Assembly: GCA_964408775.1 (NCBI GenBank)
Contig: CAYPAP010000001.1
Span: forward strand, 289,839 to 353,838
Source of the DNA: an uncultured Gammaproteobacteria bacterium
Lineage (GTDB): Bacteria > Patescibacteriota > Patescibacteriia > Patescibacteriales > UBA12465
DNA length: 64,000 bases
Direction of reading: 5' to 3'
Positions 2,448 through 57,224 of the stretch are shown here, piece after piece (position 1 is the stretch's first letter; every line of letters begins with the position of its first letter). The translations under genes and the position numbers were made by a program. Under the pieces are notes generated by a model. It saw only the letters and a list, made by a program, of their open reading frames with translations, was not told the origin of the DNA and did not search any database.

Positions 2448-4031
2448 TTATATATCGTCTTGATACTTAATAATTTCCAAAGAGCCAGTTGATCCGGGGA
2501 CACCTCCCCCTTCTGCTGAACCATCACCCATTAAAGGCGTGGGATAAATTCTATTGTTATTATTGAAAAAATCTTTAACCGCAGGGACAACAATGTTTTT
2601 TCGATAGAAATAAGATGGCTCAGATTCTGAGATTACCGGGAAAACATAAGCAGGAACATAAATCTCATGACCTCTCATGGTTGTTTCATCGTAATTCCAG
2701 GTCCTAACCATTCCAATACTAGGAGTTCCTACTTGGATGTCAACTGTCTTAATATCAACATCTTCTCTATAATTATCATACAAGAAATAAGAACCTCCAT
2801 TTTTTACCACTTCTAATATGTTTTCCTTGTCTCTTTCAGTTGAATAATAGGCGCTTTCGTAATGCTGATAGAAAAGATTGTAGACTCCGGAAACCCTTTT
2901 TTCTCTCATATCAATTTCAACCGAAAGACCGGTTTTTTCTCCCGAGTCGTCATAAACATCTACCCCCTCTACTTTTAAAGGGTATATGACTGAGATAGAG
3001 TCTGGAAAGTAGAAAGAAGCTTTATCTTCACTTAAAACATAATCCCTCATCCAATATTTTCGCACCTCTCCTGGGCCATAATTATCTAAAGGAATATCAT
3101 ATTCTCTCAAAAAATTATCGGACAAATTAACAATCTCTTCATCACTTAAAAAGTCATTGATTGTTAAGCGATAACTTTGATAACAATCCTGGTCATACCC
3201 TCGACAAAGCTTATCAATGCTTGGCCACTTATCCCAATTTTTATAAAGAGAAAAATTGCCGTCCTTTAAACCAAGGTAAATAGAATAACCATAGTCTCTG
3301 TCTTCGTTTATTGTTAGATTATTAACAGAAATATCACTAAAATTTCTTAGATCAAAGAAGGATATTTTTTTACCGGAAAACATGTCAGCAAATTGACGAC
3401 TTAAATCAACGTTACTCCTTCTATAAACACTAACCTCTTCTGGCAGCAAATTAAAATCATCGCCGACATAAATATAGTTATACTCTATTATTTCTCTGGG
3501 TAAAATCATGGAATCATTTTTAGGGTCCATGGGAGAACCAACCTCCGGGTAAGCACTGCCTATACCCATGCCTAAAACTCTTTCTGCTTGATCACCCTCA
3601 GAAGATTCAGATTGAACATCAGAAGAAAACAAAAGTGATCCAAAAAATCCTTTATCTTTTTTAACTATTTTGACATCATCTAAATAGTTAAAATAACTTT
3701 GGCCACTTACACGTCTAAGCTCGTCGGTTTTTTTCTGTCCTCCGACGACAATAAAGCTAATTGTTAATAGGATAATGACTGCGGCAATTATTAGGGCTTG
3801 CGCAAAGTCATTTAAAAATCCTAAAAAGTTAAAAGAAGAGTGCACTGTTCTTTTTTCGAAATAATCATCTGTTATTTTAACAGGTGAAGAATTTTTTCTG
3901 CTTTTAGACCTCTTTATTTTTGAAGAAACTTTAGAGGTGCTGGTAACCGCCGCAGATTTTCCTCCCGTTTTTTTTCTTGGAGAAATCTTTGCCTTTTTAG
4001 TTACCACTTTTTTTATTCTTTTCTTTTCCAT
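2448..4031 (-). CDS. hypothetical membrane-anchored protein (K-rich N-terminus, one TM, large extracytoplasmic domain)
   Basis: Long ORF. I prefer the internal start MEKKRIKK at 4031 over the track start at 4100. One hydrophobic helix (ALIIAAVIILLTISFIVVGG). No family recognised. Confidence 0.6.
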   Translation of the reverse strand: MEKKRIKKVVTKKAKISPRKKTGGKSAAVTSTSKVSSKIKRSKSRKNSSPVKITDDYFEKRTVHSSFNFLGFLNDFAQALIIAAVIILLTISFIVVGGQKKTDELRRVSGQSYFNYLDDVKIVKKDKGFFGSLLFSSDVQSESSEGDQAERVLGMGIGSAYPEVGSPMDPKNDSMILPREIIEYNYIYVGDDFNLLPEEVSVYRRSNVDLSRQFADMFSGKKISFFDLRNFSDISVNNLTINEDRDYGYSIYLGLKDGNFSLYKNWDKWPSIDKLCRGYDQDCYQSYRLTINDFLSDEEIVNLSDNFLREYDIPLDNYGPGEVRKYWMRDYVLSEDKASFYFPDSISVIYPLKVEGVDVYDDSGEKTGLSVEIDMREKRVSGVYNLFYQHYESAYYSTERDKENILEVVKNGGSYFLYDNYREDVDIKTVDIQVGTPSIGMVRTWNYDETTMRGHEIYVPAYVFPVISESEPSYFYRKNIVVPAVKDFFNNNNRIYPTPLMGDGSAEGGGVPGSTGSLEIIKYQDDI

Positions 4032-14197: not shown

Positions 14198-14641
14198 CTA
14201 AGGAGTTCCACCAACATTAGGGGTTGTTGTGGTTTGAGATCCTCCAGGTAAATTTCTGAAAACAAAAGCTGTAATTGCATAAGCTAAAACCACAATAATC
14301 AACCCTATAACCGCATTCTTAATTCTACTCTGAGCTTTTTTAACTTGTTCTTCATTACCGCCGGCAGTCATCCACTGATAACCGCTAAATATCATCAAAA
14401 TAACAAAAATAACAGCTAAAAGAGATAGAAGAGTAAGAATAATAACACTAATAATTCCCTCTGCTTGAACAGATTGAGAAAATCCAGCTGAAGATATAAA
14501 GGCGCCCATTTGTCTCTCTCCAGAAGAGGCTACCTCCTCCGCAGGGTTACCTGCCAAAACATTATTAACCGAAAAACCGAAACTAAAAAAAACAGCTAAC
14601 AGAATTATTATTACAAATTTATTTTTAAAAAGTTTTTTCAT
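14198..14641 (-). CDS. TrbC/VirB2-like 'T4SS pilin' family small membrane protein (paralog 1)
   Basis: Signal peptide, variable region, TM1, conserved loop QWMTAGGNEEQVKKAQ, TM2 (AVIGLIIVVLAYAI). Confidence 0.75.
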   Translation of the reverse strand: MKKLFKNKFVIIILLAVFFSFGFSVNNVLAGNPAEEVASSGERQMGAFISSAGFSQSVQAEGIISVIILTLLSLLAVIFVILMIFSGYQWMTAGGNEEQVKKAQSRIKNAVIGLIIVVLAYAITAFVFRNLPGGSQTTTTPNVGGTP

Positions 14642-14645
14642 ATAA

Positions 14646-15047
14646 TTATTGTTGTATTCTATTTATAAAATATCTATCTATCAAACTCCAAATAGCATAG
14701 GCTGATAACGTTATAATTAATCCAATAATAGCGCTTTTAATTCTCTCCTGAGCTTTTTTAACTTTTTCCTCATTGCCACCAGCGGTCATCCATTGAACAC
14801 CACCAAAGATTATCAAGATTATAAAAAGAACACCCAAAATAGAAAGAACCACATTAGCCACTAAACCCAGACCACTAGCCAAGGAAGTTTCATCAGCAGA
14901 AGAATAACCACCGCTTTCGCCAACTTTTTCTAAACGACCCAAAATACCAGAAGAATCACTTTCATCAGCAAAAACTAAAAAGGGTAAACACAATAAAAAA
15001 ACTAAGAAAATTGCTGAAAGAAATGAGTTTATATTTTTTTTAACCAT
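14646..15047 (-). CDS. T4SS pilin-like protein (paralog 2)
   Basis: Same architecture. Loop motif is QWMTAGGNEEKVKKAQ. Confidence 0.75.
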   Translation of the reverse strand: MVKKNINSFLSAIFLVFLLCLPFLVFADESDSSGILGRLEKVGESGGYSSADETSLASGLGLVANVVLSILGVLFIILIIFGGVQWMTAGGNEEKVKKAQERIKSAIIGLIITLSAYAIWSLIDRYFINRIQQ

Positions 15048-15081
15048 AGAAAAATTATTTATTTAAATTAAATCCTAATAA

Positions 15082-15501
15082 TTAAACCCCGGAGGCCTGA
15101 TTAATAAACGCCCCTATTACAAAAATAGAAATGGCATAGGCTGTTAAGACTATTACTAACCCTATTATCGCCCTTCTAATAATACTTTGAGCCTTGCTTA
15201 TCTTTTCTTCATTTCCGCTAGCAGTCATCCACTGAATTCCTCCATAAATCATTAAAATAATGAAAAGAACACCTAGAATAGAGAGGACAACCTGGACTGC
15301 TGTTCCCACAACTGTTTCCGGAGTAGTGGTTCCACTGATATCATAACCCATTTGAGAAGCGGCGGCACCCAAGGCCTTGTCTTCACCAGATCCAAAGGCA
15401 TCTGAAAGATTAGCAGCCTTAGTACTGGAAATAAATAAAAAGCAAAACAAAAATATTATTAATAAAAAATGAATGGTTTTAAAATAATTATTTTTTTTCA
15501 T
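15082..15501 (-). CDS. T4SS pilin-like protein (paralog 3)
   Basis: Same architecture. Loop motif is QWMTASGNEEKISKAQ. Confidence 0.75.
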   Translation of the reverse strand: MKKNNYFKTIHFLLIIFLFCFLFISSTKAANLSDAFGSGEDKALGAAASQMGYDISGTTTPETVVGTAVQVVLSILGVLFIILMIYGGIQWMTASGNEEKISKAQSIIRRAIIGLVIVLTAYAISIFVIGAFINQASGV

Positions 15502-15523
15502 AAAAACAATCTAATATAAACAA

Positions 15524-15934
15524 TTATTGCAAAGAATCTGAAAAAGCTGTAACCAATAAAATACTAATGGCATAAGCTAACAAGACTACAGCTAAGCCAA
15601 TAATGGCCCTAGTAATAGTAGACTTGGCTCTCTCTAGTTTTTGTTCATTGCCCCCAGCAGTCATCCATAAAATCCCTCCTAATATTAACATGATCATAAA
15701 AAGAACTCCTACGAGAGACAAAACTATATTGACAATCACACCAGCCCCAGAATCCAGAGATCCGGCACTATTAAAAATTTTTTGACTAGTATGTCCTGTC
15801 CCCTTGGCTGTGGTTTCTACGCCAGTGCTCTCTAGAAAAGAAAAGGCATTACCAACCCCTATATTTAAAGAGAAAAATAAAAAAAAGATTAAAGGTAATA
15901 TAAGAATATAATTTTTAATCTTTTTTAAACTCAT
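15524..15934 (-). CDS. T4SS pilin-like protein (paralog 4)
   Basis: Same architecture. Loop motif is LWMTAGGNEQKLERAK. Confidence 0.75.
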   Translation of the reverse strand: MSLKKIKNYILILPLIFFLFFSLNIGVGNAFSFLESTGVETTAKGTGHTSQKIFNSAGSLDSGAGVIVNIVLSLVGVLFMIMLILGGILWMTAGGNEQKLERAKSTITRAIIGLAVVLLAYAISILLVTAFSDSLQ

Positions 15935-15947
15935 AGAAAATTAAATT

Positions 15948-16412
15948 TTAACAGTATAAACTAATATTTTCTAAAATATTTTTTGATGTTCCACCACCAT
16001 CAGTTCCTGCCGGATCGGAGCTGGTTAACTGTTCTCCAATAAAGGCGGTAATTGCATAAGCAGCTAGAACTATGATTAAACCAACAATTGCCTGAACAAT
16101 GAGACCACGTGCCTTTGCCACCTGTTGTTCGTTGCCTTGAGACAGCATCCATGTAAGACCTCCATAGATTATTAAGGCCATAAAAATAACCCCGATGAAA
16201 GACAGAATGGCCCCTATTAATATACCTAGTCGACTAGAAATAAAATTACCGGAGCCTTTGGAGTTATCAACATCTTCAACACTAAAAGCCTCCCCCAAGT
16301 CCCCCACCTGAACTGTTTCCCCCAGACCATAAGAAGCCTGGACTACAGCAAAAAAAGAAAAAAATAAAAAAACCACTAATAAAAAAATGATAAATTTATT
16401 TAATTTAAACAT
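15948..16412 (-). CDS. T4SS pilin-like protein (paralog 5, most divergent loop)
   Basis: Same architecture. Loop motif is TWMLSQGNEQQVAKAR. Confidence 0.7.
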   Translation of the reverse strand: MFKLNKFIIFLLVVFLFFSFFAVVQASYGLGETVQVGDLGEAFSVEDVDNSKGSGNFISSRLGILIGAILSFIGVIFMALIIYGGLTWMLSQGNEQQVAKARGLIVQAIVGLIIVLAAYAITAFIGEQLTSSDPAGTDGGGTSKNILENISLYC

Positions 16413-16546
16413 ATTTTATATTTTAATAGCAAAATATACGTCCATTGTTGTAGGCACTTTAATAATAAAACGCTCACAACGATGGTGCTTATTTCTAAAA
16501 ATAAGCACCGTACTTCCAAAATCGACTTTAGAAATAACACAAAGAA

Positions 16547-16942
16547 CTAGTTTCCGGTTGCAGACATTAATTCGTTTAGAACAAATGAAGCGATTCCCCA
16601 GGCGGCTAGAATTATAACCAAACCGATAACACCGGCTCCTAATAATTTTTTGGCCTCGGCCACTTTCTCTTCATTGCCTCCAGCGGTCATCCATTTAAAT
16701 CCACCCAAAAGAACGATAATAACGGCGATGATTCCCAATAAAGTTAGAACTACGTTAATAATTTGGGCTATCATGGTGCGAGGATCTTTTTGTCCCAAGA
16801 CAATCTCTTCTCCTCCTGCGGCCCCATTAATATAATTATAACCGAAATTATCTCCGGCTGCCTCTACTCCAGCAGGCAATACCATCAAAAACGGAGTTAA
16901 AAACAAAGAAACTATAAACAAAGAAATTATTTTTTTTCTCAT
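16547..16942 (-). CDS. T4SS pilin-like protein (paralog 6)
   Basis: Loop motif KWMTAGGNEEKVAEAK. Strong SD (GAAAGGTGGTGA) upstream. Confidence 0.8.
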   Translation of the reverse strand: MRKKIISLFIVSLFLTPFLMVLPAGVEAAGDNFGYNYINGAAGGEEIVLGQKDPRTMIAQIINVVLTLLGIIAVIIVLLGGFKWMTAGGNEEKVAEAKKLLGAGVIGLVIILAAWGIASFVLNELMSATGN

Positions 16943-17500
16943 AATTCACCACCTTTCTAGTTTTAAATTTAATAAATTATAATATTAAAATTATAACACA
17001 AAAGAACGGAAACGACAATAAAAACATTAATAAAAAGTGAGCACTAGTTTCCAGTAGCGTCCATTAATTCATTTAAGACAAACGAAGTTATTCCCCAGGC
17101 GGCTAGAATTATAACCAAACCGATAACACCGGCTCCTAATAATTTTTTGGCCTCGGCCACTTTCTCTTCATTGCCTCCAGCGGTCATCCATTTAAATCCA
17201 CCCAAAAGAACGATAATAACGGCGATGATTCCCAATAAAGTTAGAACTACGTTAATAATTTGGGCTATCATGGTGCGAGGATCTTTTTGTCCCAAGACAA
17301 TCTCTTCTCCTCCTGCGGCCCCATTAATATAATTATAACCGAAATTATCTCCGGCTGCCTCTACTCCAGCAGGCAATACCATCAAAAACGGAGTTAAAAA
17401 CAAAGAAACTATAAACAAAGAAATTATTTTTTTTCTCATAATTCACCACCTTTCTAGTTTTAAATTTAATAAATTATAATATTAAAATTATAACACAAAA
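16593..17500. repeat. tandem duplication, period 497 bp, with 411 bp identical by eye (16593-17003 = 17090-17500)
   Basis: Line-by-line comparison of the two copies. Identity covers the promoter, SD and most of the CDS, but stops about 45 nt before the stop codons. Confidence 0.85.
17044..17439 (-). CDS. T4SS pilin-like protein (paralog 7, near-identical to paralog 6)
   Basis: Differs from paralog 6 only in the last ~15 residues. Confidence 0.8.
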   Translation of the reverse strand: MRKKIISLFIVSLFLTPFLMVLPAGVEAAGDNFGYNYINGAAGGEEIVLGQKDPRTMIAQIINVVLTLLGIIAVIIVLLGGFKWMTAGGNEEKVAEAKKLLGAGVIGLVIILAAWGITSFVLNELMDATGN

Positions 17501-17533
17501 AAAGTAAACAACAATAAAAACAAACCAAAAAAG

Positions 17534-17929
17534 CTAGTTTCCGGTTGCGTTCATTAGTTCGTTCAGAACAAACGAGGTTATTCCCCAAGCAGCTAGAATT
17601 ATAACCAAACCGATAACGCCAGCTCCTAATAATTTTTTAGCCTCAGACACCTTGTCTTCATTGCCCCCGGCGGTCATCCATTTAAATCCACCCAAAAGGA
17701 CAATAACAACAGCAATAATACCAAGCAACGTTAAAACAACGTTGATAATCTGGGCTACCATAGTACGAGGATCTTTTTGTCCTAAAACTATGCCTTCTCC
17801 GGCTACCCCATTGCCATTTACATACCTTAATCCAAAAGGATCGGACGGCGTAGCCTCAGCTGGAAAAGCAATTAAAAATGGGGTTAAGAACAAAAAGAAT
17901 ACCAACAAAGAGATTATTTTTTTTTTCAT
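17534..17929 (-). CDS. T4SS pilin-like protein (paralog 8)
   Basis: Loop motif KWMTAGGNEDKVSEAK. Close relative of paralogs 6 and 7. Confidence 0.8.
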   Translation of the reverse strand: MKKKIISLLVFFLFLTPFLIAFPAEATPSDPFGLRYVNGNGVAGEGIVLGQKDPRTMVAQIINVVLTLLGIIAVVIVLLGGFKWMTAGGNEDKVSEAKKLLGAGVIGLVIILAAWGITSFVLNELMNATGN

Positions 17930-29488: not shown

Positions 29489-32400
29489 TTATTGGTTAGT
29501 AATTTCATCCTCCAGCTTAACACTCAGCAATTTACTAATTCCATCATTTTGCATAGTGACACCATATAAAATATTAGCCTTTTTCATTGTGGCTCTGTTG
29601 TGTGAAACAACTATAAACTGAGTCTTATTGGACAAATCATCCAAAATTTTAGCCAATCTCTCGGAGTTAGATTCGTCTAAAGAAGCATCAACCTCATCTA
29701 AAACCACAAAGGGAGACGGGTTGGCGCTAATAATAGCACAAATTAAGGCAATCGCCGTTAAAGCTCTTTCTCCTCCGGAGAGCATATTGACCGAGGATAT
29801 TTTTTTACCGGGAGGAGTGGCTGAAATATCAATTCCAGAAAAACCAATGGCATTGTGCTTCTTTAGATGTTTAATAAGTTTAATATTTTTAGATGATTGA
29901 GAGTCTTTATTATTTACAGAATCGCTCTCTTCTCCAGCCCCCTTTAAATCTCCCTCTGTTCCGTCGTTTTCTTTAATCGGAAATATCTTGGCATTACCTC
30001 CATTAAATAAAATTTTAAAGTATTCATTAAATTTTTCTGAAATAATTTTAAATTCTACATCAAATCTGTCCTTAATCACAGTGTCTAGCTCAATTATTAC
30101 TTTTTCTAAAGATTTTATTGTTCTGTTTAAATCCTCGGTTTGCTCAAACAAAAAATCATATCTTTTTTGAGTCTCCTCATATTCTTTTTCTGCCTCGGGG
30201 TCTATTCCTCCTATTTGCTCTAATTGATTTTTTAATTTGTTAATATCTTCTTTAACCACTAATATATTAATACCTTCTTCTGGCTGATGTTTTTTTATTT
30301 TTTCTAACTCTATTTTGTCATCTAAGACATTTTTGACTAAATCTTCCAATCTAGTCTCCTCCCTAGCTATATCTATTTTATGGCCGCTAAGATCAGAATT
30401 AACCCGATTTAAAGTGTTTTCGGTTTCATTTATACTTCTTTGAAGCTCAAGCAAGTCCTTTTTCTTTTTTTCTTGGTCTTTATTAAAATTATCAATTTTC
30501 TCTTTCAGCACAAACAATTCCTCCTCGGACTCCTTTGAATATGAGTCTAAAAATTTTAATTCTAAGTCAAAGAAGTTGTCTTTTTCTATATTTTCGGAAG
30601 GAGAAAAAACGTTTTCTTTAATTTCCTCTAATAAATCCTCTTGCCTTGACTGAAGTCTGAATCCGTCTGCCTTTATTAAGCTTATTTTATTATTTATTTC
30701 ACTTAATCTGTTTTGCTCTTTCTGCAGAGCTTCTTGGTGCTGAGATCTTTTATTGTGCCAATCATCTTTTTCCTTAACCCAAGAATCTTTTTTCTGTTTT
30801 AAATCTCTAATTTTTAATAAAACCTTATTAGTCTCTTCTTCTAGTTCACTTTTTATTTTTTCATTCTCGTCCCAATCACTATCCTTCTCATTCAGCTTAA
30901 TTTTATCAATTAGATCAATCAACTCTTTTTTTATTTTTTGCAAATCTCTTTCTGTTCTTTCTTTATCAGACCTAGCGTCCCTATGTCCTGTTTGTACCTC
31001 ATAGACCCTGGAGGCCAACTTTTCTTTTTCTAATTTTAAATCCGAAATTTTATTATTTATTCTATCAATTTTATAAGTATAATTCTCTCCTGAAGAAAAA
31101 TTTAAAAGCTCTTTGATTGTTTTTTTTATATCCTGAAAAATTTTACCTACAAAAGAAACGTCATCTAAATCTTTAACTGACTCTATTTTTTCCGCCAAGT
31201 TTTTTAGATCTTTTTGAATTTTCTTAATATTAGAGGGGCTTTCCTCTGTATTTATCCGACTAAGTTCTCTCTCGGCCTCCCTAATCCTTAAGTCCAACTC
31301 TTCTAACACCCCTTGAATCTTGTCTTTTTCATTTAAAAGGCTGTTCTCTTTTTCTCCTAATTTTTTCAATAATATCTCTAAGTCTTTTTCTTCTTTTTTT
31401 AAAGAAGACTGGCGGTTTAATAAAAAAGACAAGTCAAACTTTCCTTGTTTTTCTAGTTTAATCTCCATCCAAGCCTCTATTTTTAATAATTCTTTATTTT
31501 TTTCAGATAACTCTTTCTCTAAAACAGCCATTTCTTCTTCGACTTTTTCTAATTCTGCTTTTTTGGAGAACTCATCTTCTGTTTTCTTAAGAGCTTCTGA
31601 ATTTTTCTGAATGCTATTTTCTACTTCGTTTTTTTCTTGAATTAATAATTTTAAATCCTCGTTATCAGAATTTTTATTTTTTTTATCTAAAGTTATCCAC
31701 AGATCTATCCTTTCGGCTTGTTTTTGTAAGCGGTCTTTTTCTGATTGTAAAAAAAGAAATCTTTTTTGTAATTCATAAAATTCCTCCCCAATTGTTTCGG
31801 CTTGGTTAAAAAAATTCATCTTTTTCTTGCTCTCGTTAAGAGAGTCTTCTAACTCTACTTTCTTTTTTTCAGACTCTAATATCACCTGACTAATTTCATT
31901 TATTTTTTTATTAAGCTCTAGCCATAGATGGCCATAATAATTTAATTGGTTCTTGGACAGATCCTCTTCAAGAGCCTGCCTTTTTCTTAGCTTACCAACC
32001 TGACGCGTAAGACTTTTAAGGCGTGGCTCTATTTCATTTAATAACATCTCCACTTTTGCTAGGTTTTCCTGGCTATTTTCTAATTTATTTAAAGAGATGT
32101 CTCTTTTTATTTGATACTGTTTTACCCCGGTGGCCTCATCAAAAAAAGACTTGCGTTCGGCTGGGCTAGTATTTAAAAAATTTTCAACCATCCCCTGACC
32201 AATAACACTATATGTTTTTTGCCCAAAATTTGCCTTAGCTAAAAACATTTGGATGTCGCTTAAACGAACCTTACTGTTATTAATTAAATATTCGCTATTG
32301 CCATCACGAAAAACTCTTCTGGTTAAAACAATTTCTGGCAAAAATAAAAGGGCATCGATATTGTCGCCCTCACCCCCACCTTTAATAGTGTCTTCGTTTT

Positions 32401-32713
32401 CCCCAGTTGTTTTTTTAAATAAATTATTATTCTCATTATTTAAAAACAAAGAAACCTCTGCCATGTTAAGACGGTTCCTTTTGTCAGATCCAGAAAAAAT
32501 AACATCTTCGCTTTTTTTACTACGAAGAAGTTTGGTGCTTTGCTCGCCCAAGACCCACCTAATAGAATCGGCTATGTTAGACTTCCCCGAACCGTTAGGG
32601 CCAACAACCACTGTTATTCCTTTTTTTTGGTCTGACAAAATTCCAGAAAATATTAATTTGTTTTTATTAGCAAAAGACTTGAATCCCTGAATTTCCAGTT
32701 TTTCTAAATACAT
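29489..32713 (-). CDS. smc: chromosome segregation protein SMC
   Basis: 1074 aa. Walker A GPNGSGKSN, long coiled coils, signature LSGGERALTAIAL, Walker B VLDEVDASLD. Confidence 0.92.
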   Translation of the reverse strand: MYLEKLEIQGFKSFANKNKLIFSGILSDQKKGITVVVGPNGSGKSNIADSIRWVLGEQSTKLLRSKKSEDVIFSGSDKRNRLNMAEVSLFLNNENNNLFKKTTGENEDTIKGGGEGDNIDALLFLPEIVLTRRVFRDGNSEYLINNSKVRLSDIQMFLAKANFGQKTYSVIGQGMVENFLNTSPAERKSFFDEATGVKQYQIKRDISLNKLENSQENLAKVEMLLNEIEPRLKSLTRQVGKLRKRQALEEDLSKNQLNYYGHLWLELNKKINEISQVILESEKKKVELEDSLNESKKKMNFFNQAETIGEEFYELQKRFLFLQSEKDRLQKQAERIDLWITLDKKNKNSDNEDLKLLIQEKNEVENSIQKNSEALKKTEDEFSKKAELEKVEEEMAVLEKELSEKNKELLKIEAWMEIKLEKQGKFDLSFLLNRQSSLKKEEKDLEILLKKLGEKENSLLNEKDKIQGVLEELDLRIREAERELSRINTEESPSNIKKIQKDLKNLAEKIESVKDLDDVSFVGKIFQDIKKTIKELLNFSSGENYTYKIDRINNKISDLKLEKEKLASRVYEVQTGHRDARSDKERTERDLQKIKKELIDLIDKIKLNEKDSDWDENEKIKSELEEETNKVLLKIRDLKQKKDSWVKEKDDWHNKRSQHQEALQKEQNRLSEINNKISLIKADGFRLQSRQEDLLEEIKENVFSPSENIEKDNFFDLELKFLDSYSKESEEELFVLKEKIDNFNKDQEKKKKDLLELQRSINETENTLNRVNSDLSGHKIDIAREETRLEDLVKNVLDDKIELEKIKKHQPEEGINILVVKEDINKLKNQLEQIGGIDPEAEKEYEETQKRYDFLFEQTEDLNRTIKSLEKVIIELDTVIKDRFDVEFKIISEKFNEYFKILFNGGNAKIFPIKENDGTEGDLKGAGEESDSVNNKDSQSSKNIKLIKHLKKHNAIGFSGIDISATPPGKKISSVNMLSGGERALTAIALICAIISANPSPFVVLDEVDASLDESNSERLAKILDDLSNKTQFIVVSHNRATMKKANILYGVTMQNDGISKLLSVKLEDEITNQ

Positions 32714-42609: not shown

Positions 42610-43143
42610 TTAAATTCGGTAAAAATATATATTATCTCGCCCCTCCTTAATAACCCTTTCCGGGTCAAGCCCCGCGATACTAAATCTATAACTAACAACC
42701 AATGTTCCTGGGCGACACTCTTTTTTAAACTTTTCTTTTAACCTTTTCATGGTCTCTGGGATTAAGAAACAATAAATAACGTCCGCCTCCTTTAAACTAA
42801 TCTTAAAAATATTTTTTCTAATCATTTGAATCTTACTACCCGTTATTACAATTTGCATTTTAGCCAAAACATAGGGCCACCAAGAATATTCCACTCCAAC
42901 CAATTTTTCATTTTTAAATTTTTGTTCTACTGCCCTTAAAAAACCGGCCTTACCCGCCCCTAATTCATAAACAGTCTCTTTTCCACTTAAATTTAATTCT
43001 TTTAAAATCGCCAAAATAGCGCTAAATTTAGTAGAAATAAAAGGAGCAAATCCTCTAAAAACAACATTATACATTTGAGTGGTAACGAATATTAGTGCCA
43101 AAGACAAAACCACTAAAATAACTATTAATAAAAAGGCCTCCAT
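42610..43143 (-). CDS. membrane-anchored putative SAM-dependent methyltransferase
   Basis: N-terminal TM helix and a glycine-rich loop (VYELGAGKAGFL). Confidence 0.5.
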   Translation of the reverse strand: MEAFLLIVILVVLSLALIFVTTQMYNVVFRGFAPFISTKFSAILAILKELNLSGKETVYELGAGKAGFLRAVEQKFKNEKLVGVEYSWWPYVLAKMQIVITGSKIQMIRKNIFKISLKEADVIYCFLIPETMKRLKEKFKKECRPGTLVVSYRFSIAGLDPERVIKEGRDNIYFYRI

Positions 43144-45034: not shown

Positions 45035-46156
45035 TTATTGTTTTATTGGCATAACTAAATACAAAAAGTCATCTCCTTTTTCAGGTCTGATAACACATGG
45101 TGTATTATTATCAACAACTCCCAATACAATATTTTCTGAATTAATATTATTTAACCCCTCTAATAAATATTTATAATTAACAAACACCTCATTGTCCCCC
45201 CCCTTAATATTCGCATCTAGTTCAATAAAATTTTCTCCCGCCTGACTAGAGCTAGATGAAATAATTATTTTATTTTTTATAAAATTCAAATTAACATCAT
45301 TTATTCCTGTTTTAGAAAAAAGACCAGCCGCTTTAATGGCTCGCGAAAAAATATTTTTATTAATAATGATTTTTGTTTTTTCCTCTTTCGGTATTATCTG
45401 TTTATAGTCCGGATAGTTTCCAACTATTATTCTAGACCCAATTTTAGTTGATCCAATTGAAAAAAATATTTGGTTATTATTTAAATATAAATTAACCTCC
45501 CCCTCTCCCTCAATCTGTTCTTCGGTCTTAAAGTTATTCAAAATTCTAACCAACTCCTGAATTGTTCTAGCAGGGACAATAATAGTAAACTCTTCTTCAT
45601 TTTTATTTTTAATTTTTATTTTTTTCTCAGCCAAGCGATAACTATCTGTTCCAACCAGGGTTAACTCTCCTGACAAAAAAGAGAAATAAACCCCAGACAA
45701 CTCAACCCTACCATCATTACTAGAAACAGAAAAAACAGTACTAGACAAGGCCTCCCTAAAATCCTCAACTGCAAAAGAATAAAAACTTTTTTGATCAATT
45801 TTTGGAAGAACCGGAAAGTCTTCGGCTGATTGTCCCTTTATTCTTGTTTTATGATTTTTAGAATCAACCTTTAAATCATCTTCAACCCTTTCTATTTCAA
45901 CCTTGTCCTCAGATAAAAGATTTATATAATCACTCATAATTCTGGCATCAACCGTAAACTCTCCCTCTTTTTCAACCTTTCCCCTTAAAGAGCTTTCTAT
46001 GCTTATTTCTAGATTAGTAGAAATTAGTTCTATCCCTTCTTTTTTTGCTTTTATTAAAATATTATTTAGTATCGGTAAATTTATATTTTTAGTTGTTAAA
46101 TGTGAAACTATGGCTAGGCCCTGTTTTAAGTTTTCTTTCAAAATTATAAATTTCAT
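45035..46156 (-). CDS. dnaN: DNA polymerase III beta sliding clamp
   Basis: 373 aa. N-terminus MKFIILKENLKQGL....H....K..LPIL.NILI. Located directly downstream of dnaA. Confidence 0.9.
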   Translation of the reverse strand: MKFIILKENLKQGLAIVSHLTTKNINLPILNNILIKAKKEGIELISTNLEISIESSLRGKVEKEGEFTVDARIMSDYINLLSEDKVEIERVEDDLKVDSKNHKTRIKGQSAEDFPVLPKIDQKSFYSFAVEDFREALSSTVFSVSSNDGRVELSGVYFSFLSGELTLVGTDSYRLAEKKIKIKNKNEEEFTIIVPARTIQELVRILNNFKTEEQIEGEGEVNLYLNNNQIFFSIGSTKIGSRIIVGNYPDYKQIIPKEEKTKIIINKNIFSRAIKAAGLFSKTGINDVNLNFIKNKIIISSSSSQAGENFIELDANIKGGDNEVFVNYKYLLEGLNNINSENIVLGVVDNNTPCVIRPEKGDDFLYLVMPIKQ

Positions 46157-46450
46157 ATTTTTCTTTTATATTTATTTTATATTATATTAAATAATAATAG
46201 TAATAAGGGGTGGGGATATGTTTGTTATTTTTTACTTCGGCTTTTGTTTTATTGTATTAAGTCGACCTTTTGACTGTTTATAACTATGTTTAAATTTTCG
46301 GTAAAAACTTTTTGATTTGTTAATAACTTTTTGTTTTTAAAACTTATACACATTTTATAAAAAACGATTAATAGTTTTTGCACAGATTTTAAATTTTTTA
46401 TTAACTTAATATCAACCGTTTATTAACAACTATTTTTTCTTTTTTTATAA
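46157..46450. other. dnaA-dnaN intergenic region, candidate oriC part
   Basis: Very AT-rich 294-bp spacer with a one-mismatch DnaA box TTATACACA near 46344. Confidence 0.35.
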
Positions 46451-47818
46451 CTATAAAGAGCCATATAACAGCTGTTTTATAGACTGAATGTCTTGAACAA
46501 GTTTTTCGTTTTCGTCTTTTTCTTTGTTTATTTTATTAAAGGCGTGGATGGCGGTTGTATGGTCTCTTCCCCCTAGGGCTTCTCCTATTGTGGGATAAGA
46601 CGTTTTTAATTCTTCTCTCATTAAAAATATAGATATTTGTCTGGGAAATACTAACTCTTTTTTTCTTTTTTCTCCCATTAGGTCTTTTACACTTATATTA
46701 TAAAACTGGGCAACGCTCTCTATTATGTCTTTGGGGCTCATCGGTTTTATTTGATTGTTGTTTGTTAAATCATTTAAAATGGTTTTTACCATTTTTAATG
46801 TTGGTTTTAGATTATGAAATTCGTGATAGGCAATAATTTTATTCAAAGCCCCCTCTAATTCTCTAATATTATTTTGGATACTTTCAGCAATATATTTTAA
46901 AACTTCATCTTCTATTATGTAATTCTTTTCTTTAGCCTTCTTTTCTAATATAGCAATTTTTGTTTCAATATCTGGTCTTCCAACGTCTGCCACCATGCCA
47001 GACTCAAATCGAGAAATTAGCCTTTTTTCAATCGCTGGGATGGCCTTTGGTGGCCTGTCAGAAGATAATACTATTTGTTTATCTCCCTGCTGTAATTCAT
47101 TGAAGGTGTGAAAAAACTCTTCTTGAGTTCCGTCTTTTCCCCCCATAAACTGAACATCATCTACTAATAGTAGATCAACGTTTCGATATAGATTTTTAAA
47201 TTCTTTTGCTCGCCCTCCTCTTATAGAGTCTATATAATTATTTGTGAATTGTTCACTGGTTGTGTATAAAACTTTTTTGTTGTTTTTTACTAGCTCGTTT
47301 CCCATAGCTTGAAGCAAATGAGTTTTTCCTAGTCCTACACCCCCGTAAATAAATAAAGGGTTGTAAGCCTTGCCCGGGTTGCTAACAATTGCCTGACAAG
47401 CTGCGTAGGCTAGCTCGGTTGCCTTGCCCACCACAAAAGTAGAAAAGGAATATTTTGGGTTCAGACCAAATCGGCTAACGTTTATTTTATTTTCTTGTGA
47501 GCAGGCTTTTATTGGTTCTTCTTTTTTTTCATTTTTTTTACTTATATCCTTCTCGCTGCTTTCTTCTTTTTTTAGATTTACACTGAATTCTATTTCAGTA
47601 ATTTTTTTTTCAACAATTTTTTCTATAGAAGATTTAATGGCCTTGTAATATTTTTGCTCTAACCATCTTTTAGTGAATTCATTTGGCACCGATATAATAA
47701 CCTTATTATCCTCTAGGCAATAAATAAAAGTGTTTTTAAACCAAGTAATAAAGTTTACCCTGGAAATTCCAATTTCTAGTTCGCCTAATACGGCTTGCCA
47801 AATTTGATCATTGGTCAT
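46451..47818 (-). CDS. dnaA: chromosomal replication initiator DnaA
   Basis: Walker A GGVGLGKTHL, box VII, and a C-terminal DNA-binding domain (GGRDHTTAIHA). Confidence 0.95.
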   Translation of the reverse strand: MTNDQIWQAVLGELEIGISRVNFITWFKNTFIYCLEDNKVIISVPNEFTKRWLEQKYYKAIKSSIEKIVEKKITEIEFSVNLKKEESSEKDISKKNEKKEEPIKACSQENKINVSRFGLNPKYSFSTFVVGKATELAYAACQAIVSNPGKAYNPLFIYGGVGLGKTHLLQAMGNELVKNNKKVLYTTSEQFTNNYIDSIRGGRAKEFKNLYRNVDLLLVDDVQFMGGKDGTQEEFFHTFNELQQGDKQIVLSSDRPPKAIPAIEKRLISRFESGMVADVGRPDIETKIAILEKKAKEKNYIIEDEVLKYIAESIQNNIRELEGALNKIIAYHEFHNLKPTLKMVKTILNDLTNNNQIKPMSPKDIIESVAQFYNISVKDLMGEKRKKELVFPRQISIFLMREELKTSYPTIGEALGGRDHTTAIHAFNKINKEKDENEKLVQDIQSIKQLLYGSL

Positions 47819-50837: not shown

Positions 50838-51602
50838 ATGAATGGACTATTTGAAACCATTTTTTATCAACCAATTCTAAACTTATTAGTTTTTTTATAT
50901 AATACTTTCGGCGACCTGGGTGTGGCGATTATATTTTTAACGTTAATTATTAAGGTTATTTTATTGCCTTTATCAAAAAAATCTATTAAATCGCAAAAGG
51001 CCTTACAAGATCTTCAGCCCAAGATAGATGAGTTAAAGAAAAAGTTTAAAAATGATAAACAGGCGATGAGCCTAGCTTTAATGGCCCTTTATAAAGAAAA
51101 CAAGGTTAATCCCTTTTCTTCTTGTTTGCCGTTATTAATTCAATTACCTTTTTTTATTGCTATTTTCAAAGTTTTTCAAGACGGTTTTGCTCAAAATCAC
51201 TTAGATTTATTATATCCTTTTGTAAACAATCCAGAAGTTATAAATACGGTTAGTTTGGGATTTTTTGAATTATCGGAGAGAAGTATAGTTTTAGCCCTTT
51301 TAGCTGGAGCTGCTCAATTCTGGCAAGGAAAAATGATGATGTCTAAGAAGCCAGAAATTAAAACAGAGGGATCTAAGGACGAAAACATGATGGCCATAAT
51401 GAATAAACAGATGATGTATATTATGCCGGGGATTACAGTATTAATTGGCGTAAGCTTCCCAGCGGGTTTGACTTTTTATTGGTTTTTAACTACTTTATTT
51501 ACCGTTTTTCAGCAGAAACTTGTTTTTCATAAATCAAAAAAAAGCGAATCAAAGGAAAACATTGTTAAGGTTGTGGAGGAAAAAACGGGGTCCGAGAGAT
51601 AG
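50838..51602 (+). CDS. yidC: YidC/Oxa1 family membrane protein insertase
   Basis: Short YidC with conserved LPL..K...S......LQP....LKKK and P..GCLP.L.Q.P.F-like motifs. Confidence 0.88.
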   Translation: MNGLFETIFYQPILNLLVFLYNTFGDLGVAIIFLTLIIKVILLPLSKKSIKSQKALQDLQPKIDELKKKFKNDKQAMSLALMALYKENKVNPFSSCLPLLIQLPFFIAIFKVFQDGFAQNHLDLLYPFVNNPEVINTVSLGFFELSERSIVLALLAGAAQFWQGKMMMSKKPEIKTEGSKDENMMAIMNKQMMYIMPGITVLIGVSFPAGLTFYWFLTTLFTVFQQKLVFHKSKKSESKENIVKVVEEKTGSER

Positions 51603-51710
51603 AGATACATCGGCCTTAAAGGACGGAGAATGTCTGTTTGGGTTATTATAAATTTAATATAAATAGAAAAGTACACTGTTTTGTAACCAGTGCACTTTTT
51701 AAGAACTTCT

Positions 51711-51734
51711 AAATTGTTCTACGTAGAACAATTT
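51711..51734. repeat. perfect palindrome, copy 1 (AAATTGTTCTACGTAGAACAATTT)
   Basis: Self-complementary over 24 bp. Core is TGTTCTACGTAGAACA. Confidence 0.9.
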
Positions 51735-51790
51735 TTTTGCTTATTAGGAGAGGCAGTTTAATTTTTTATAGAATCAAGTTGTCTTTTTTT

Positions 51791-51806
51791 TGTTCTACGT
51801 AGAACA
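51791..51806. repeat. perfect palindrome, copy 2 (TGTTCTACGTAGAACA)
   Basis: Self-complementary over 16 bp. Confidence 0.9.
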
Positions 51807-51960
51807 TTTATTGTTTATTTTAGAAAATAAATGCGTTGTATTTTTATCTTTGTACACATAAAAGAACAAAGGTCTTAAGGGGGAATATAATAAGATATGT
51901 AGAAAGACCATGTTTAGAGGGATTAAGGCTTTTAAGGTTTTTATAATGTGGGGGTGATAA

Positions 51961-51992
51961 TTAAAAAATGTTCTACGTAGAACATTTTTTAA
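51961..51992. repeat. perfect palindrome, copy 3 (TTAAAAAATGTTCTACGTAGAACATTTTTTAA)
   Basis: Self-complementary over 32 bp. Confidence 0.9.
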
Positions 51993-52109
51993 TTTATTTT
52001 AAGAAAGAGAATTCTTTTTATTTTGGTTTCTATATATAGAAGGCTAAAGAGTTTTGAAAAAAGATAAGAATGGGACAAAATATAAATATATAGAAGGTTT
52101 TTTCCTAAA

Positions 52110-53186
52110 TTAGTCTAAAAGGCACCGCACAGCCAAGCCATTAGCTCGGCCGTAACTGTTCATGTATGCATTACTACTATCGAAGTAAAGGTAGCGCGAA
52201 TTCGTGCCATCTACGGAACTCGCCCAATAGCGGCCGCTAGAACCAACATCGTAGCGAACGCCCACCTGTCGGTGGCTGTAGCCGGCTAATGTAAGTTTTA
52301 AAGGTGTGGCAAAGGCTCCGGCTGAGTTGTGTGTTCCCCAGCTTACTCTTTCAGCTTCCCATTCTGCTTCGGTTGGTATTCTCCAGTCACTTGGACAGGG
52401 GTTATTAACTCCACTTGCTCCTTGCCATAGATTATTGTTTTCCGGACTACGCCAGTCATTAGGAGAACTTCCGTTAGTTATAAAATTAGCATGTCCTGGG
52501 GTGTCGGTGGTGGCCAATGTTGCTGTTGTAGCTGGAGCTGGACTTCTAACTTGATGCCCATCATCTAATCTGCCCCATTGGAATAGGTCACCATAGGCGG
52601 CGGCATCAGTGGAGGATATGGCTACTTGCGTGGCTCCGAGGTTGCGGTCTAACCAACATTCAGTAGTAGTTGCATTTAATACAGTTCCGTAGGTTACAGG
52701 AGATCCGTTGTATGTGAAAGTCACCGTGTATTCTCCGCACCTAGGAACGTGGACCACCCCTGAAGGGCTGGCCTCTTTTAATCCAGCTGACAGGCTAGCT
52801 ATAGCACCTCCTGTACAAAAATCTATGGTATAGGTCGATCCGTCAGCAGATGTATAGGTGTAAGTGTTATCACTTTCCTCACAGTCTCCGTCTGCTGGAG
52901 TAGGCGCTGTTGGGACAGTGGCCATATAGGTTGATCCTCCCGTGGCTATAGTACTATCTATTTCTCCAGTTAGCGGATATGCTCCGGTATCATTATAATA
53001 CAGTTCTAATGCTGTTTGCATTTGTCTAACATCAGCTATTCTTTTAGCGTCTCGAGCATTTTTTCTAGCATTTTGTAGGGACACCACAGCTAGAGTAGCC
53101 AAAATACCAATTATGGCGATTACTACTAATAGTTCAATTAGAGTAAAGGCTGGCTTATAAGATCTCTTGACCTTAAATTTAAACAT
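52110..53186 (-). CDS. type IV pilin-like protein fused to a FISUMP (Fibrobacter succinogenes major paralogous) domain
   Basis: Prepilin N-terminus [21 protein letters not shown]-terminal motifs CWLDRNLGA, YGDLFQWGR, WRIPTEAEWEA, GRYWASS and GLAVRCLLD match the FISUMP pattern. The C-terminal two-thirds are strongly GC-enriched. Confidence 0.8.
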   Translation of the reverse strand: MFKFKVKRSYKPAFTLIELLVVIAIIGILATLAVVSLQNARKNARDAKRIADVRQMQTALELYYNDTGAYPLTGEIDSTIATGGSTYMATVPTAPTPADGDCEESDNTYTYTSADGSTYTIDFCTGGAIASLSAGLKEASPSGVVHVPRCGEYTVTFTYNGSPVTYGTVLNATTTECWLDRNLGATQVAISSTDAAAYGDLFQWGRLDDGHQVRSPAPATTATLATTDTPGHANFITNGSSPNDWRSPENNNLWQGASGVNNPCPSDWRIPTEAEWEAERVSWGTHNSAGAFATPLKLTLAGYSHRQVGVRYDVGSSGRYWASSVDGTNSRYLYFDSSNAYMNSYGRANGLAVRCLLD

Positions 53187-53269
53187 AGAATTAGTTTTTA
53201 TTAATATTTTTTAATCTACTAATGATGTAGATATATAAATCTATTTATTGTTATAAAAAACAATTCCAG

Positions 53270-53289
53270 AATGTTCTACGTAGAACATT
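53270..53289. repeat. perfect palindrome, copy 4 (AATGTTCTACGTAGAACATT)
   Basis: Self-complementary over 20 bp. Lies between gene 53340-54059 and the pilin-FISUMP gene. Confidence 0.9.
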
Positions 53290-53339
53290 TATAATTTTGT
53301 CTTGATGGCTTAAGCAACAATGGTCTCTCAAATAGTTTT

Positions 53340-54059
53340 TTAAAAAAGCCGTTCTTTCCCTACTATTAGGTCTATTGTTTTCTCAGATGGTTCTATTTTT
53401 ACCGGCAAACTCACCTCTATTAGCTCATCTATAAGTCCTTTTTCCTTTTCATTTAGAATTTCAGCCTTTTTTACTAAGAGGTGTGTTTTATTTTTTGATC
53501 CAATTTGTATATATAGGTTTAAAATTTTATCTTGAGGGTCTATTTTAATGTTTTCAAATATTTTTTTAGCTGGAGGAAGGTTATAAACAAAAAGATCTCC
53601 ATTTTTTTGAGGAGAGATGGTGTATGAGTCGTTTATTTTAATTGATGTATCTTTACCCTTTATAAAAAAGTTATTTATAAATAAAACATCATTAGCTTCC
53701 GCTAAATTTATTTTTTCAATTCGGCGACTTGATAAAATAAAACAAGCCTCTTTTTCGTTAGGGATACCTAGAGAGCTGGCAATAGAATTTTCGTTCCCGA
53801 CAGGAATTAGCGCTAATGGTACTTTTTCGCTAAAATTAGCTAAAATATTTATAATAAGATTTGCCGTTTTATTATTGCCAACCGAAATAATGGTTTTAGC
53901 CCCGTTATTTATTTCTTTTTGCAGGGCCTCTTTTGGGTTTTTAATGTTTTTTAGATAAATAATCTTCCCTTGAAGATTCAATTTATTAAGACTTTCTTCA
54001 ATTGTTCTTACGGTTTTCTTGTATTTATCTAAAAAATCATCGTAAACAAATATGTTCAT
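53340..54059 (-). CDS. diacylglycerol/lipid kinase catalytic-domain-like protein (degenerate GGDGT motif)
   Basis: Layout resembles the DAGK_cat/YegS family (IISVGNNKTANLIIN... LALIPVGNENSIASSLGIP). Confidence 0.5.
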   Translation of the reverse strand: MNIFVYDDFLDKYKKTVRTIEESLNKLNLQGKIIYLKNIKNPKEALQKEINNGAKTIISVGNNKTANLIINILANFSEKVPLALIPVGNENSIASSLGIPNEKEACFILSSRRIEKINLAEANDVLFINNFFIKGKDTSIKINDSYTISPQKNGDLFVYNLPPAKKIFENIKIDPQDKILNLYIQIGSKNKTHLLVKKAEILNEKEKGLIDELIEVSLPVKIEPSEKTIDLIVGKERLF

Positions 54060-54084: not shown

Positions 54085-54504
54085 TTATAATTTTTCCTCT
54101 TCTTTTTGATTTTCCTCCTCTTTTTTATTTATATCCGCTTTTTCGTTCTTATTTTTATTATTAATAACAACTTTTCCATTAATTTCCGCTCCTTTTTCAA
54201 TTGATATTTGGGCACAATCAATATCACCTAAAACCTTGGCTGAATTACTAATAGATAAATAGCCCTTTACAGAAAGGTTTCCGTTGATCTCTCCTTTGAC
54301 GGCCATTTCTCCAGCCTTAATATTGGCATTTATTTTTGATTTGTCCCCAACTAGAATTGCCCCCTTGGTTTTTATTTCACCGTCTAACAGGCCATTTATT
54401 ATTATATTGCCGTTACTTTCAAAATTCCCCTTAACTTGGACTGATTCGCCGATAATTGTTTCGGCCTCATTTAGATTGTTTAGGTTTTGTTCTTTTTTAA
54501 ACAT
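54085..54504 (-). CDS. bactofilin family cytoskeletal protein
   Basis: Beta-helical repeats (V.G.....G...I.G...G.I......L.....K....I......V.G.I.G.L) and a K/E-rich tail. Confidence 0.8.
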   Translation of the reverse strand: MFKKEQNLNNLNEAETIIGESVQVKGNFESNGNIIINGLLDGEIKTKGAILVGDKSKINANIKAGEMAVKGEINGNLSVKGYLSISNSAKVLGDIDCAQISIEKGAEINGKVVINNKNKNEKADINKKEEENQKEEEKL

Positions 54505-56780: not shown

Positions 56781-57224
56781 ATGAAAAACAAAAAAACAGG
56801 CTTCACTTTAATTGAGTTATTGGTAGTTATTGCTATCATCGGAATATTAGCTACTCTTGCGGTTGTCTCCCTGCAAAATGCCAGAAAAAATGCTAGAGAT
56901 GCTAAAAGAGTTGCCGATGTTAGACAAATGCAAACAGCCCTAGAATTGTATTTTAATGACTGGCAAGAATATCCAGCTACTTTTACTGCTGGACAAATTG
57001 CTACTAGTAGCTCTGTTTATATGGCCACTGTTCCAACAGCTCCTACTCCGCATGATGGGACTGGTTGTACTGCGAGCAACAATGCTTATCAAAATAATTA
57101 TGAAACTCAATCAAGCAATGCCTCTTACACTATAGATTTTTGTTTAGGAGGAACCAGTGGAACAACCGAAGGACCTGCCTGTGCTACTCCGGCCGGGATC
57201 ATAACAGGAGAAGCCTGTATTTAG
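56781..57224 (+). CDS. type IV pilin-like protein (prepilin N-terminal methylation domain)
   Basis: [37 protein letters not shown]. About 60 N-terminal residues are nearly identical to those of 52110-53186. Terminator at 57252-57280. Confidence 0.85.

Follow-up and report, generated by a model that had tools for sequence, protein, structure and literature searches.

Four identical palindromes close to a Patescibacteria replication origin: a probable cluster of parS centromere sites

During bacterial chromosome segregation, dimers of ParB nucleate at parS sites, spread to the flanking DNA, drive the segregation of the origin and load SMC (PMC7333895). Genomes contain between 1 and about 23 parS sites, which are usually origin-proximal, and some species, e.g., Streptococcus pneumoniae and Staphylococcus aureus, possess ParB-parS and SMC but no ParA (PMC7333895). 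One such site, TGTTCCACGTGGAACA, is the parS bound in vitro by ParB of Bdellovibrio bacteriovorus (PMC10547168). Here we consider a stretch of 64 kb from the chromosome of an uncultured member of the Patescibacteria (contig CAYPAP010000001.1; this whole stretch is referred to as ‘the window’), in which the perfect 16-bp palindrome TGTTCTACGTAGAACA occurs four times around a gene for a protein with a prepilin-type N-terminus and a FISUMP-like region (the ‘pilin-FISUMP gene’). The comparison with other genomes makes it quite probable that the four palindromes are parS centromere sites clustered near the origin, that is, an ordinary and well-known kind of element, in a variant form.

The repetition of the palindrome is real and far beyond chance. 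An exact search of the window yields four copies (Table 1), all located within 1.6 kb of the 64 kb, and the numbers of matches expected by chance are 0.01 if up to two and 0.20 if up to three mismatches are allowed. A fifth copy is found nowhere in the 64 kb, even with three mismatches. The half-site GTAGAACA has a single occurrence outside the four sites (at 42923), and the relaxed pattern TGTTYY-N4-RRAACA adds one match in the window, a low-complexity one at 1965. At the scale of the window, the motif thus exhibits the combination of few copies and tight clustering expected for parS. The initial annotation, made from the sequence alone, had described four perfect copies, three of them in the gap between yidC and the pilin-FISUMP gene and the fourth upstream of that gene, and had noticed the 16-mer nowhere else in the window; all of this agrees with the exhaustive search, the gap being 507 bp long and site 4 preceding the start codon (ATG) of the pilin gene by 86 bp. 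The palindromic extents reported there are likewise correct for sites 1 (24 bp) and 4 (20 bp), while the palindrome around site 3 comprises 36 bp rather than 32 bp. A separate assembly of this organism (L122; Logan SRR10872584_1129) breaks 166 bp before site 4 (about 53100-53340 of the window). The matching contig k141_46705 (298 kb) of ENA ERZ27252304 encodes proteins identical to those of the window, with coordinates shifted by 42 bp at some place from 1 kb to 52 kb, so that the window may derive from an almost identical assembly. The break and the 42-bp difference could both have arisen during assembly from the repeated palindromes.

In sequence, TGTTCTACGTAGAACA equals TGTTCCACGTGGAACA at 14 of 16 positions, the two differences being symmetric transitions, C6->T in one half-site and G11->A in the other. 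Three mismatches separate TGTTCTACGTAGAACA from the parS consensus TGTTNCACGTGAAACA. We refer to the sequence as the T variant. In position, the sites are located 3.9-5.5 kb from dnaA and adjoin rnpA, yidD and yidC, which are encoded on the plus strand up to 51602. The minimum of the cumulative GC skew at ~48-49 kb indicates that the window spans the replication origin, so that the sites are origin-proximal as is usual for parS; an enrichment of DnaA boxes was not detected in the window.

The distribution of the T variant in other genomes provides a link to chromosome partitioning. A scan for the exact 16-mer in a public collection of 596 Gb, holding one genome per species, with an 8-kb block considered for each match, returned at least 120 loci. 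Since about 140 chance matches of any 16-mer are to be expected in 596 Gb according to a uniform model (596e9 / 4^16), isolated single matches were not counted, and only clusters and gene context were considered. Homologues of both ParA and ParB are encoded inside the 8-kb block in 26 of the 120 public loci listed. In contrast, the control with viral contigs (at least 120 matches) revealed a ParB-like gene nearby in 2 of the 120 matches listed, and most viral matches fall inside one conserved phage coding gene. Among these viral contigs (L131-L250), the conserved gene (…GATGTTGTTCTACGTAGAACAGTT…) belongs to a family of related phage contigs with a GC content of ~0.36-0.37 and is unrelated to ParB.

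At the parAB-linked loci, which among the matches listed belong to the Bdellovibrionota, Acidobacteriota, Bacillota and Elusimicrobia, among others, the motif is mostly found less than 1 kb from parA, usually just upstream of it, and a stand-alone ParB gene from Elusimicrobia has the motif 32 bp upstream. Moreover, the parAB-linked clusters mix the T variant with TGTTCCACGTGGAACA and with half-and-half hybrids of the two such as TGTTCCACGTAGAACA and TGTTCTACGTGGAACA. At one locus from Ca. Pacebacteria (L089), ten such sites (T variant, canonical and hybrid) are packed into 650 bp. The presence of mixed and hybrid sites in single clusters argues for one protein reading all variants. In six gammaproteobacterial loci (SAR86 and others), the motif shares its 8-kb block with dnaA-dnaN, and four of the six possess a second variant site. 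A plasmid search with a Cupriavidus locus (L094) gave no match. Judged by its sequence and genomic context, the T variant is most likely a common but undocumented form of parS.

Conservation in related genomes, which the initial annotation had named as informative, could be assessed in 18 syntenic Patescibacteria loci (15 from genomes and 3 from metagenomes), and the sites are kept there. In metagenomes, a search with the lipid-kinase-like protein encoded next to the sites gave only five close relatives. The window and the 18 loci together contain 82 sites of the pattern TGTTCT-N4-AGAACA (1-10 per locus), 52 of which have the centre ACGT. They are always found in the non-coding stretch bordering a pair of genes encoding the lipid-kinase-like protein and a bactofilin, either between this pair and yidC or on the other side of the pair. 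The lipid-kinase-like proteins are just 31-69% identical across these genomes, and when the intergenic DNA is aligned, no block other than the palindrome is invariant, the flanking DNA being poorly conserved, as is evident for site 1, whose flanks diverge. Invariant sites between diverged neighbours and flanks indicate purifying selection on the sites themselves. Outside the core, A is favoured on the 5' side (at -1 and -2 in about 75% of the sites) and T on the 3' side. In more distant Patescibacteria, namely Uhrbacteria (L033) and Parcubacteria (L088 and L120), T-variant sites are located near the same gene pair, and L088 and L120 contain canonical parS sites besides. The pairing of bactofilin and lipid-kinase-like gene beside the cluster is without exception in all syntenic loci as well as in L033, L088 and L120.

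The syntenic public contigs carry the labels Patescibacteria or Parcubacteria. Seven contigs of metagenome-assembled genomes (L060, L106, L115, L007, L058, L071 and L112) are titled ‘uncultured Gammaproteobacteria’, have a GC content of 23-37% and are fully syntenic with the Patescibacteria window; their gammaproteobacterial labels are probably wrong.

From sequence, position and context, we infer that the four sites are bound by ParB in this organism and are the ParB loading sites of its chromosome. A ParB (Spo0J) dimer would nucleate on each 16-bp palindrome and, with CTP, would clamp and subsequently slide to neighbouring DNA. The clamped ParB molecules would then build a single partition complex a few kb from oriC, and this complex would mark the origin region for segregation and load the SMC complex encoded in the window.

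Several observations weigh against this assignment. First, ParB and ParA homologues were found neither in the window, nor in the 10 kb beyond each end, nor in 28 related Patescibacteria loci (346 kb in total), as searched by regular expressions, phmmer, a ParB hidden Markov model with filters off and the Pfam labels of called genes on the matching contigs; two protein database searches for ParB returned only proteins from Clostridia and Elusimicrobia. In the 346 kb searched, parAB is clearly not adjacent to parS in this lineage, unlike in most bacteria. Second, the four central bases vary among the relatives (ACGC, GCGT, TTGT, ACAC, ACAA), while the hexamers TGTTCT and AGAACA are invariant, that is, the centre is looser than in the textbook consensus. 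Sites with variable centres are seen in L007, L042, L083, L106 and L100, with up to 10 sites. Third, copies of the 16-mer are scattered across one Terriglobia genome, an Acidobacteriaceae metagenome-assembled genome (MAG) with the motif in at least seven blocks on five contigs, up to 320 kb apart (L002, L003, L044, L061, L062, L070, L085), so that it perhaps does not act as a centromere everywhere; these copies could represent dispersed parS sites or serve a second function. Wherever the 16-mer occurs in Terriglobia genomes of high GC content, local A/T tracts surround it (aaaaTGTTCTACGTAGAACAtttt), and it is also found beside parA. Finally, neither the 14-mer nor a 10-mer of it in combination with ‘parS’ turned up in the literature searched, which also contains no treatment of parS or ParB in Patescibacteria.

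The lack of parB in the 346 kb around the clusters, and the invariance of the arms at a variable centre, would also be compatible with a Patescibacteria-specific dimeric helix-turn-helix protein other than ParB, which would read TGTTCT/AGAACA at these sites as its operators and organise or regulate the origin-proximal region. A gene for a TrmB-like helix-turn-helix protein indeed lies beside a site in three distant Patescibacteria loci; however, neither the window nor any close relative has it, and no conserved DNA-binding gene adjoins the cluster, whose neighbours encode the lipid-kinase homologue, with no sign of a DNA-binding domain, and bactofilin. In addition, many phyla, other Patescibacteria among them, have this 16-mer linked to parAB and able to replace canonical parS and vice versa, and the existence of such a protein would require a second protein family recognising that very sequence. 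We thus consider a reader other than ParB unlikely. The TrmB-like genes themselves are found at 2633-3319 (-) in L120, 6586-7395 (+) in L088 and 2575-3372 (+) in L033, with the T-variant site 18 bp past the 3' end, 42 bp past the 3' end and 800 bp upstream, respectively.

Hence, of the earlier suggestion that the palindromes are an operator for a dimeric regulator, the dimeric binder is retained, with ParB as the most likely candidate, while a regulator of the pilin-FISUMP gene is not: 18 relatives have the sites but not that gene, and a pilin-like gene start is nearby in one of the 120 public loci listed. Other operator families, namely LacI type (central CG), LexA/Cheo box, NrdR and Zur, were likewise dropped, given the parAB linkage and the mixed clusters.

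A further proposal of the initial annotation was that the palindromes form a shared bidirectional terminator hairpin, i.e., that they are intrinsic terminators with a stem sequence in common by chance. Sites 1-3 do lie between the convergent yidC and pilin-FISUMP genes, the A6/T6 arms of site 3 bring its folding energy to -14.2 kcal/mol on one strand and -14.7 kcal/mol on the other, a T7 run comes after site 1 (-8.2 kcal/mol), and the preference for 5' A and 3' T in the relatives' flanks points the same way. However, the core hairpin comprises only 6 bp with two G-C pairs (-4.7 kcal/mol at site 2), site 4 has no adjacent T-run, and yidC possesses its own hairpin and T-run, conserved in a relative, ahead of site 1. 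With core hairpins of -4.7 to -8.2 kcal/mol, the sites lack the stable G+C-rich stem-loop directly followed by a U-tract that defines an intrinsic terminator, and a consensus scan detects no terminators in 51400-53500. Moreover, an identical 16-mer shared across phyla, a location upstream of parA and mixing with canonical parS sites are not traits of terminators. Termination as the purpose of the cluster is thus decidedly improbable, and a secondary role as bidirectional terminator is possible for site 3 alone.

The pilin-FISUMP gene is absent from the cluster position in the 18 syntenic relatives, and other genes are found inside the cluster elsewhere, namely an IS3-family transposase pair (L106, 717-1942) and a GNAT acetyltransferase (L060, 3147-3710). 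Since the sites persist in relatives that lack the pilin gene, and two of these have other genes inserted, the ‘bracketing’ of the pilin gene is incidental: the gene is a species-specific insertion in a long non-coding cluster and not what the sites serve. The different inserted genes suggest that the cluster is a permissive landing site. The gene had been described as GC-rich and compositionally foreign. Its GC content is indeed raised (0.465 versus 0.328 for the window), but the excess lies in codon positions 1 (0.50) and 2 (0.53), with a GC content at position 3 (GC3) of 0.36, and mainly reflects a protein rich in Gly, Ala, Thr and Pro, so that the DNA is not clearly foreign. A second pilin gene (56781-57224) likewise owes its raised GC content to codon positions 1 and 2 and not to GC3; the N-terminal 55 residues encoded by the two prepilin-type genes are almost identical, and the DNA of this segment is 81% identical.

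These findings also bear on the idea that the palindromes are att-like sites or inverted repeats marking the recombination or insertion boundaries of the pilin-FISUMP gene. It draws on the sites on either side of the gene, on a 63-nt inverted repeat (73%) spanning sites 3 and 4, and on the different genes that other relatives carry inside the cluster. Yet the full, uninterrupted cluster is present in relatives with empty sites, the inserted genes differ between genomes, the gene has three of the four sites on the same side, similarity outside the palindrome is low and AT-rich, and the GC excess is explained by amino-acid composition. Such boundaries, as envisaged in the initial annotation, are thus very improbable. 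A genome-wide DNA uptake signal associated with type IV pili, also envisaged there because the locus encodes pilins and known uptake sequences can form inverted pairs, has next to no chance of being correct, since the count of motif and half-site in the window finds all copies confined to the 1.6-kb cluster and the half-site just once more, related Patescibacteria genomes have one 8-kb block each among the matches listed, and a prepilin-like gene starts within 1.5 kb of the motif in one of the 120 public loci listed.

The features of the window that are relevant for assigning the four palindromes to parS are collected in Table 1.

Table 1. Coordinates of the parS-like sites and of neighbouring features in the 64-kb window.
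Feature	Coordinates	Strand	Evidence and remarks
parS-like site 1	51715..51730	.	exact match; perfect palindrome spans 51711-51734 (24 bp)
parS-like site 2	51791..51806	.	exact match
parS-like site 3	51969..51984	.	exact match; perfect 36-bp palindrome 51959-51994 with A6/T6 arms
parS-like site 4	53272..53287	.	exact match; palindrome 53270-53289 (20 bp); between 3' end of lipid-kinase-like gene and start of pilin gene
yidC, conserved left neighbour	50838..51602	+	Pfam 60KD_IMP, E = 1e-51; synteny with relatives
Candidate intrinsic terminator of yidC (hairpin and T-run), upstream of site 1	51666..51704	+	RNA fold -10.7 kcal/mol, z = -2.2; hairpin conserved in relative L104
Gene with prepilin-type N-terminus, FISUMP-like	52110..53186	-	Pfam N_methyl; Fib_succ_major below cut-off; NCBIfam matches
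YegS/BmrU/DgkB-like lipid-kinase homologue, conserved right neighbour	53340..54059	-	Pfam DAGK_cat; full-length PDB profile matches 4wrr, 3s40; synteny
Bactofilin	54085..54504	-	Pfam Bactofilin, E = 2e-24; synteny
dnaA, origin marker	46451..47818	-	Pfam Bac_DnaA
dnaN	45035..46165		
SMC	29489..32713	-	PF02463 SMC_N on called gene

The lipid-kinase homologue aligns over its length with YegS/BmrU/DgkB structures, and VGNNKT replaces the GGDGT motif of the family. Elsewhere in the window, eight tandem open reading frames of similar size (131-154 aa) are located at 14198-17929 (-) and may represent a paralogous family.

With the assignment to parS, a striking repeat acquires a function, and the centromere and the origin region are located in the genome of an uncultured member of the Patescibacteria, which is useful when genomes are annotated, when MAG assemblies are to be oriented and when ParB-parS labelling tools are designed for these organisms. 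The assignment also points to TGTTCTACGTAGAACA as a widely used variant of parS that, in several phyla, can be exchanged for the canonical site and would be missed by searches with the strict consensus, and it removes a false lead, the sites being unrelated to the pilin gene, to DNA uptake and to gene transfer. A mildly interesting aspect is that parAB is unlinked to parS here, while the bactofilin gene is always linked. On account of the adjacency of bactofilin and centromere alone, one may speculate that the lineage's centromere array, uncoupled from parAB and always flanked by genes for bactofilin and for a lipid-kinase homologue whose catalytic motif is degenerate, reflects an origin that is anchored or organised by a bactofilin scaffold, together with either a ParA-less ParB-SMC system or a reader of the arms other than ParB. 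This scenario is improbable; if true, segregation here would depend on a reduced system that departs from canonical ParABS.

Compared with known systems, the window sites share with chromosomal parS (i) the 16-bp palindromic form, (ii) the outer TGTT/AACA and the central ACGT, and (iii) the occurrence in multiple, clustered and origin-proximal copies. They differ in having T instead of C at position 6 and A instead of G at position 11 in all four copies, in the A/T tracts that flank the core, and in that parAB was not found nearby (window and 10 kb at each end); in addition, the central tetranucleotide is variable in the relatives. The ParA-less ParB-parS and SMC systems of S. pneumoniae and S. 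aureus resemble the window in that it encodes SMC, belongs to a small genome and has no ParA-type ATPase detected near the sites, whereas those systems do have a ParB, for which none was found in the window, its 10-kb flanks and the related loci (346 kb). Coupling between bactofilins and ParABS is represented by BacNOP-PadC of Myxococcus xanthus. The window has in common with such systems, by adjacency, that a bactofilin gene adjoins the parS cluster, while its partner gene encodes a lipid-kinase homologue with a degenerate motif instead of being parAB or padC. Bactofilin follows parB in nine Bdellovibrionota-type loci with the motif, as does bd3904 in B. bacteriovorus (PMC10547168), so that the neighbourhood of bactofilin and centromere extends beyond the Patescibacteria.

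Finally, the Noc-binding sites, TATTTCCCGGGAAATA, are likewise 16-bp palindromes recognised within the ParB family, and they are dispersed over the chromosome and avoid the terminus. They differ from the window sites at positions 2 and 7, whereas the window sites keep G2 and A7, and cluster at the origin.

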